The notes below the pieces were generated by a model. That model saw nothing but the letters and a program-made list of their open reading frames with translations, had not been told where the DNA came from and ran no database searches. Both the position numbers and the translations under genes were made by a program. This document shows, piece by piece, positions 1-532 of a stretch of DNA of 532 bases. Within the stretch, counting starts at the first letter, position 1. Each line of letters begins with the position of its first letter. This DNA is from a phage. The DNA is taken from the sequence record EF517005.1; one strand, given 5' to 3'.

Positions 1-532
1 GCTTCGGTCGTATCCGTGACCTTGAAGCTAAGCACTTCAAGAAAAACGTTGAGGAACAACTCAACAAGCGCGTAGGGCACGTCTACAAGAAAACATTTAT
101 GCAAGTTGTCGAGGCTGACATGCTCTCTAAGGGTCTACTCGGTGGCGAGGCGTGGTCTTCGTGGCATAAGGAAGACTCTATTCATGTAGGAGTACGCTGC
201 ATCGAGATGCTCATTGAGTCAACCGGAATGATTAGCTTACACCGCCAAAATGCTGGCGTAGTAGATCAAGACTCTGAGACTATCGAACTCGCACCTGAAT
301 ACGCTGAGGCTATCGCAACCCGTGCAGGTGCGTTGGCTGGCATCTCTCCGATGTTCCAACCTTGCGTAGTTCCTCCTAAGCCGTGGACTGGCATTACTGG
401 TGGTGGCTATTGGGCTAACGGTCGTCGTCCTCTGGCGCTGGTGCGTACTCACAGTAAGAAAGCACTGATGCGCTACGAAAACATTTACATGCCTGAGGTG
501 TACAAAGCGATTAACATTGCGCAAAACACCGC
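1..532 (+). CDS. 1: Partial (internal) CDS of a T7-like phage single-subunit DNA-dependent RNA polymerase, covering approximately residues 150-327 of the T7 RNAP numbering; truncated at both window edges
   Basis: Frame 3 (codons at 3-5, 6-8, ...) is open over the whole window. The translation FGRIRDLEAKHFKKNVEEQLNKRVGHVYKK...GISPMFQPCVVPPKPWTGITGGGYWANGRRPLALVRTHSKKALMRY...PEVYKAINIAQNT matches the T7 RNA polymerase N-terminal domain as recalled from memory, with 5 of about 176 residues different. E222 (GAG, 216-218) and P266 (CCG, 348-350) are in their wild-type state. No start or stop codon in frame, so both gene ends lie outside the window. The symbol '1' is the T7 gene number, not a bacterial-style gene name. 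Confidence 0.95.
240..287 (+). other. Sub-region of the RNAP CDS encoding the promoter-intercalating beta-hairpin (approximately residues 230-245 in T7 numbering: HRQNAGVVDQDSETIE here)
   Basis: Positional mapping onto T7 RNAP numbering from the translated frame. The hairpin's function (duplex opening, Val237 stacking on the template) is established knowledge for T7 RNAP. The exact hairpin boundaries are approximate and given from memory. Confidence 0.6.

Follow-up and report, generated by a model that had tools for sequence, protein, structure and literature searches.

The window (i.e., the whole 532-nt stretch of phage DNA analysed here) is a fragment of T7 gene 1, the gene for the single-subunit RNA polymerase, and it departs from the wild-type sequence at six bases, all of which are G:C>A:T transitions. 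These differences probably arose through G:C>A:T-specific laboratory mutagenesis of T7 gene 1. A laboratory origin and the class of agent are what we infer as most likely from the sequence, in which the spectrum and density of changes match those of mutagenised T7 genomes. The allele is without a match in the collections searched, yet it lies only 6 nt from wild type and calls for no new biology, the gene and the kind of lesion both being already known.

Megablast and a base-by-base comparison placed the window at positions 3619 to 4150 of the T7 reference genome (NC_001604.1), where it is collinear with wild-type gene 1 without indels and identical at 526 of 532 bases (98.9%). The reading frame at window 3-530 on the plus strand (frame 3; 176 codons) is open from end to end, is the only such frame in the window, and corresponds to codons 151 to 326 of gene 1, as supported by alignment, structures, and Pfam. 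The encoded fragment matches wild-type T7 RNA polymerase at 171 of 176 residues. Its residues 1 to 176 align to residues 151 to 326 of the T7 RNA polymerase chains in the PDB (1aro, 1cez, and 1qln; E = 6e-115), from which it differs at five residues alone, and it scores 51.7 bits against the Pfam family RPOL_N (PF14700), above the curated cutoff of 30.1. The catalytic palm and fingers (D537 and D812) and the specificity loop (residues 739 to 770) are encoded outside the 532-base window, as is the rest of the full-length reading frame. The window lies wholly inside gene 1, so the choice between a phage genome and an expression cassette is a question of the flanks. T3-like sequences are approximately 74 to 75% identical to the window, which bears out the original prediction that the fragment is far nearer to T7 than to T3. 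No Rfam families, sigma-70-like promoters, or repeats were found in the window. Two weak hairpins followed by T runs, resembling intrinsic terminators, occur on the minus (antisense) strand at window 47-66 and 461-474 (2 found versus 0.3 expected in shuffled sequences); the six changes all lie outside them, and they are probably incidental.

The six changes, all given on the plus strand, comprise five G>A and one C>T. At window 93, GCA>ACA (context aaaGcat) replaces A181 with Thr in the H subdomain (residues 151 to 190), and at window 231, GTT>ATT (context atgGtta) replaces V227 with Ile in the promoter-binding domain just ahead of the intercalating hairpin. A third G>A, at window 265 (GGT>GAT; context tagGtca), yields G238D within the intercalating beta-hairpin (residues 230 to 245), adjoining Val237. 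The single C>T, at window 333 (CTG>TTG), is silent at L261 in the C-linker. Two further G>A changes hit adjoining codons, namely GAC>AAC at window 480 (D310N; context gaaGacg), at the end of the N-terminal domain, and GTT>ATT at window 483 (V311I; context gacGttt). Thus, five of the six are missense and none affects a third codon position. The mutated G is preceded by a 5' purine in five cases, including L261, for which the mutated G lies on the other strand; V311I is the sole exception. With only six events, neither this context preference (P = 0.12 under a background of 51%) nor the 5:1 bias of G>A over C>T (P = 0.22) is significant alone. The original prediction listed these five substitutions together with a probable synonymous change at L261; its coordinates, codons, and wild-type residues are all correct against NC_001604.1, in which L261 does read CTG. 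The BLASTN comparison that it proposed, against T7 gene 1 and T7-like phages, returned wild-type T7 as the best match, with six mismatches.

Records of wild-type T7 and of its laboratory derivatives were then compared with the window. V01146, NC_001604, AY264774, T7.1, and the DE3 prophage each differ from it at exactly the six sites. The 28 Escherichia coli genomes that contain gene 1 differ at the same six sites; they include C41/C43, BL21(DE3) with its derived strains, T7 Express, Origami, and Rosetta, along with BL21-AI, for which the total is nine. Among the wild-type and engineered T7, DE3, T7 Express, and BL21-AI records searched, none had fewer than six mismatches. Wild-type T7 and the standard DE3 and T7 Express cassettes are therefore excluded as sources, since all of their records disagree with the window at each of the six sites. 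The three additional differences in BL21-AI (NZ_CP047231.1, positions 74320 to 74851) are departures of that strain from wild type, namely N165Y (A>T), H176R (A>G), and L246P (T>C) at window 45, 79, and 289; they look like a PCR-type spectrum, unlike that of the window, and may be either a feature of the strain or an assembly error.

Searches for the allele itself were likewise negative. Five 41-mers were concatenated, with the variant base in the middle of each to force any 28-base megablast seed to include it, and this query had no match among 50,697 phage records; K and K115, two mutagenised isolates (see below), escape this test only through lacking V311I. An exact 29-mer spanning D310N and V311I had no matches in the viral, genome, and metagenome contig collections. 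Megablast against the PLSDB plasmids gave no match of any kind, which makes this collection uninformative on cloning vectors. A protein database search with the 176-residue fragment gave three remote partial matches (at most 67% identity); the T7 RNA polymerase family is seemingly absent from that database, which is thus uninformative on variant frequencies. Two of these matches are annotated as Streptococcus danieliae and Xylella fastidiosa, on contigs of 395 and 295 nt, and resemble pieces of phage or contaminant DNA that ended up in bacterial assemblies. A separate observation concerns the 5,728-bp metagenome contig IMGVR_UViG_3300009034_000458, which matches wild-type T7 at every base of the window region (100%) and may represent either contamination with laboratory T7 or DE3 or a genuine environmental T7.

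Natural sequences diverge from T7 in a manner opposite to that seen in the window. We examined a sample of 30 natural T7/T3-like sequences, consisting of ten relatives spanning 94% to 75% identity and twenty IMG/VR contigs. The nearest of the relatives are approximately 94% identical and carry 24 to 43 changes from T7 in the window region. In relatives at least 90% identical to T7, 183 of 192 differences (95%) are at third positions and 184 (96%) are synonymous, leaving 4% non-synonymous; 37% of the 192 differences are G>A or C>T, with mixed directions and with transversions included. Under this natural pattern, the probability of six changes without a third-position hit is approximately 1e-8, that of at least five non-synonymous changes among six is approximately 7e-7, and that of six G:C>A:T changes among six is 0.0026. 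The affected residues are also conserved, with A181, V227, D310, and V311 kept in 30/30 sequences and G238 replaced only in phage Tarrare, by Ala. Searching IMG/VR with degenerate codons for the variant residues returned 0 contigs, versus 21 for a wild-type control motif, and A181T, V227I, G238D, and V311I each had no IMG/VR match in these scans.

A natural and very close T7 relative, unsampled in the collections searched, could in principle account for the window, since the allele is missing from those collections and an unsampled phage is formally possible. The T at window 333 does occur in nature (in Yersinia phage Y and one IMG/VR contig) and is the sole recurring change. Nevertheless, none of the five variant residues turned up among the 30 relatives or in any IMG/VR contig, and the combination of six G:C>A:T transitions, no third-position change, and missense changes at conserved residues effectively excludes such a relative, which we regard as extremely improbable. 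The original prediction had left T7 itself, a very close relative, and a laboratory or mutagenised allele as candidate sources; we regard the last of these as the probable answer, with wild-type T7, the DE3 cassette, and a natural relative set aside. It had also held that the window alone could not tell these sources apart, which proved too cautious, in that the pattern of the six changes does separate them.

The six changes have a close counterpart in the genomes of mutagenised T7 isolates. Four such isolates were compared, namely K (AY264775), K115 (AY264776), P (AY264777), and P82 (AY264778), with a nitrosoguanidine-type agent presumably having been the mutagen for the K and P isolates. Relative to its ancestor (AY264774), K carries 413 substitutions genome-wide, of which 94% are G:C>A:T, corresponding to 5.6 per 532 nt as against 6 in the window; among 532-nt windows of K (mean, 5.5 changes; standard deviation, 2.7), 47% hold at least six. 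A 5' purine precedes the mutated G in 80% of cases in K, versus 51% in the background and five of six in the window (n = 6). Gene 1 holds 27 to 28 substitutions in K/K115 and 19 to 21 in P/P82, nearly all of them G>A or C>T, and the 532 bases that correspond to the window hold five changes in K/K115 and three in P/P82, all G>A or C>T. We take these isolates to be the lines that Bull et al. (2003, J Mol Evol 57:241) mutagenised and then allowed to recover.

The window is not itself one of these four isolates, since it shares a single site with K/K115 (window 480; D310N), out of five, and none of the three sites of P/P82. Common ancestry with K through D310N is unsupported, given that coincidence with K at one or more sites has a probability of approximately 0.14 and that the other four sites of K are unshared. 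The presence of D310N in both K/K115 and the window may reflect chance, a mutational hotspot (gaaGacg), or a tolerated or beneficial change. GU071092 was also considered as a possible sister record of a T7 mutagenesis study and was rejected, as it is an unrelated cyanophage. The proportion of missense changes sets the window apart from the viable lines. Gene 1 of the K and P lines holds 15 missense to 31 synonymous changes (33% missense), whereas the window holds 5 to 1 (83%; binomial P = 0.016; Fisher P = 0.026).

These observations suggest that T7 gene 1, in a laboratory lineage or a clone, would have been exposed to a mutagen that yields almost only G:C>A:T changes. The most likely agent would be an alkylating one of the nitrosoguanidine type, and such an agent was reportedly used on T7 in the Bull and Molineux experiments. 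An identical spectrum would be expected from hydroxylamine, EMS, bisulfite, or a cytosine deaminase; with six changes, and with strand bias and context both short of significance, alkylating agents, hydroxylamine, bisulfite, and deaminases are indistinguishable here. In T7, G:C>A:T changes dominate after mutagenesis with nitrosoguanidine or hydroxylamine (PMC6042481, a paper from the Bull laboratory), and EMS, MNNG, and 2AP all enhance G:C>A:T changes (Badran and Liu, PMC4633624). Read by eye, the deaminase contexts of the window are mixed (one TC, three AC, and two GC; WRC in 3/6 and TC in 1/6), and the AID (WRC) and APOBEC (TC) contexts are thus uninformative as identifiers of a deaminase.

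Given laboratory mutagenesis, the vehicle could well have been a mutagenised phage genome, a reading to which we assign nearly even chances. The missense excess over the viable phage lines also makes it possible that the source was a clone subjected to mutagenesis, a member of a library, or a variant obtained by selection. It may reflect weaker selection on gene 1, as in a clone or library, or selection for an altered enzyme, and with six events it is only suggestive. Random mutagenesis, in vitro or in vivo, of a cloned T7 RNA polymerase gene on a plasmid or a selection phage (e.g., by hydroxylamine, EMS, MNNG, or a deaminase hypermutator) is a sub-case of the same laboratory origin, differing in the vehicle and in the selection regime (either a library member that escaped selection or a variant that was selected), and we hold it possible though doubtful. 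Unselected G:C>A:T changes in the window are expected to be missense in 68% of cases, with which five or more of six agrees (P = 0.38), in addition to exceeding the missense fraction of the viable mutagenised lines (P ~0.02); five missense changes at naturally kept residues would be expected if selection was weak or a new function was selected, and the 5:1 excess of G>A over C>T fits a deaminase acting on one strand. This excess is, however, not significant, the deaminase contexts are mixed, and a single round of library mutagenesis would typically give fewer changes than the 1.1% seen here. Moreover, the window contains no known engineered substitution (E222 and P266 are wild type), and literature searches for the five substitutions found no paper linking them to T7 RNA polymerase.

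The remaining alternatives differ in how they account for the uniform spectrum. Damaged, bisulfite-like, or low-coverage data in which cytosines were deaminated, over a genuine wild-type T7 or DE3 template, would show exactly C>T and G>A; T7 and DE3 are common laboratory contaminants, and the IMG/VR contig mentioned above has 100% wild-type T7 sequence in this region. Such a sequencing or template-damage artefact is nonetheless very unlikely, as changes at 1.1% spread evenly over 532 nt of assembled consensus would need very low coverage, and the 5'-purine-G context (5/6) fits alkylation better than spontaneous deamination, albeit weakly. Slightly less likely still is a variant evolved by PACE or error-prone PCR with a broad-spectrum mutator. 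T7 RNA polymerase is routinely subjected to continuous evolution (PMC4633624), and the allele is not wild type; however, mutagenesis with MP6, the PACE plasmid, is described as broad, with more uniform transitions and transversions (PMC4633624), and six of six G:C>A:T changes would be unexpected. The PCR-like changes of BL21-AI (A>T, A>G, and T>C) represent a different signature, and hallmark specificity changes such as E222K are missing. It is also conceivable, although improbable, that the five substitutions form a selected combination from unpublished directed or compensatory evolution that alters promoter opening or the transition from initiation to elongation. If so, the missense excess (P ~0.02) and the recurrence of D310N in K would reflect selection, with G238D (tip of the intercalating hairpin), A181T (H subdomain), and D310N/V311I (junction of the N-terminal and polymerase domains) as candidates.

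G:C>A:T mutagenesis in the laboratory, our preferred explanation, would leave an enzyme whose properties can be gauged from the regions affected. The fragment takes in the H subdomain (residues 151 to 190), the latter half of the promoter-binding domain together with its intercalating hairpin, the C-linker (residues 251 to 296), and the junction with the polymerase domain, with the N-terminal domain ending at about residue 312 (PMC11617373, PMC4176174); the intercalating beta-hairpin comprises residues 230 to 245 (PMC4176174). Judged from the substitutions themselves, the encoded enzyme is probably still active, since V227I and V311I are conservative, D310N is compatible with viable phage (being carried by K/K115), and position 238 tolerates Ala (in phage Tarrare) and Leu, with G238L reportedly keeping the yield of in vitro transcription (bioRxiv 10.1101/2024.05.23.595468). 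Among the substitutions, G238D would be the likeliest to weaken promoter melting, placing a negative charge next to the promoter-opening Val237.

Engineered and evolved alleles of the same gene were also compared, and none of them includes a substitution found in the window; a literature search on deep mutational scanning of T7 RNA polymerase returned nothing relevant. Two T7 clones, MZ375237 (T7_30L) and MZ375279 (T7_240L), carry Q184R (window 103), with T7_240L also carrying A188T (window 114); both residues are in the H subdomain, a few residues from the A181T of the window. In the MZ3752xx series, many records disagree with the window at one further position, suggesting that Q184R recurs. 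We take this series to be the heat-adaptation clones of PMC8923235.

The biological weight of the window is small, as few enzymes have been studied as thoroughly as T7 RNA polymerase and the laboratory use of G:C>A:T mutagens on T7 is documented. Its use lies in provenance, in that the window can be flagged as a mutagenised sequence of laboratory derivation and not mistaken for a natural T7 relative or a standard DE3 cassette. In addition, it carries five substitutions at naturally conserved residues, the functional compatibility of which could be read off if the source were a viable phage.

Known systems frame this interpretation from several sides. The DE3 prophage, V01146, AY264774, and the chromosomes of BL21(DE3), T7 Express, and related strains are identical to wild-type T7 gene 1 in this region. 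The orthologous genes of Salmonella phage PSP2-22, Escherichia phage N30, and Cedecea phage Yanou encode a protein identical to that of wild-type T7 in the region at 94% DNA identity, with only synonymous third-position differences and none of the five missense changes. E222K, P266L, K180E, G238L, BL21-AI, and the heat-adapted clones are laboratory alleles of the same gene with mixed types of mutations, of which K180E, G238L, Q184R, and A188T fall in the same subdomains as changes in the window. The gene 1 sequences of K/K115 and P/P82 bear a signature of purifying selection, whereas the window has no such synonymous excess; these mutagenised genomes resemble the window in their near-exclusive G>A and C>T changes and in the density of those changes, and K prefers G preceded by a purine, a context of five of the six changes in the window (P = 0.12 under the background).
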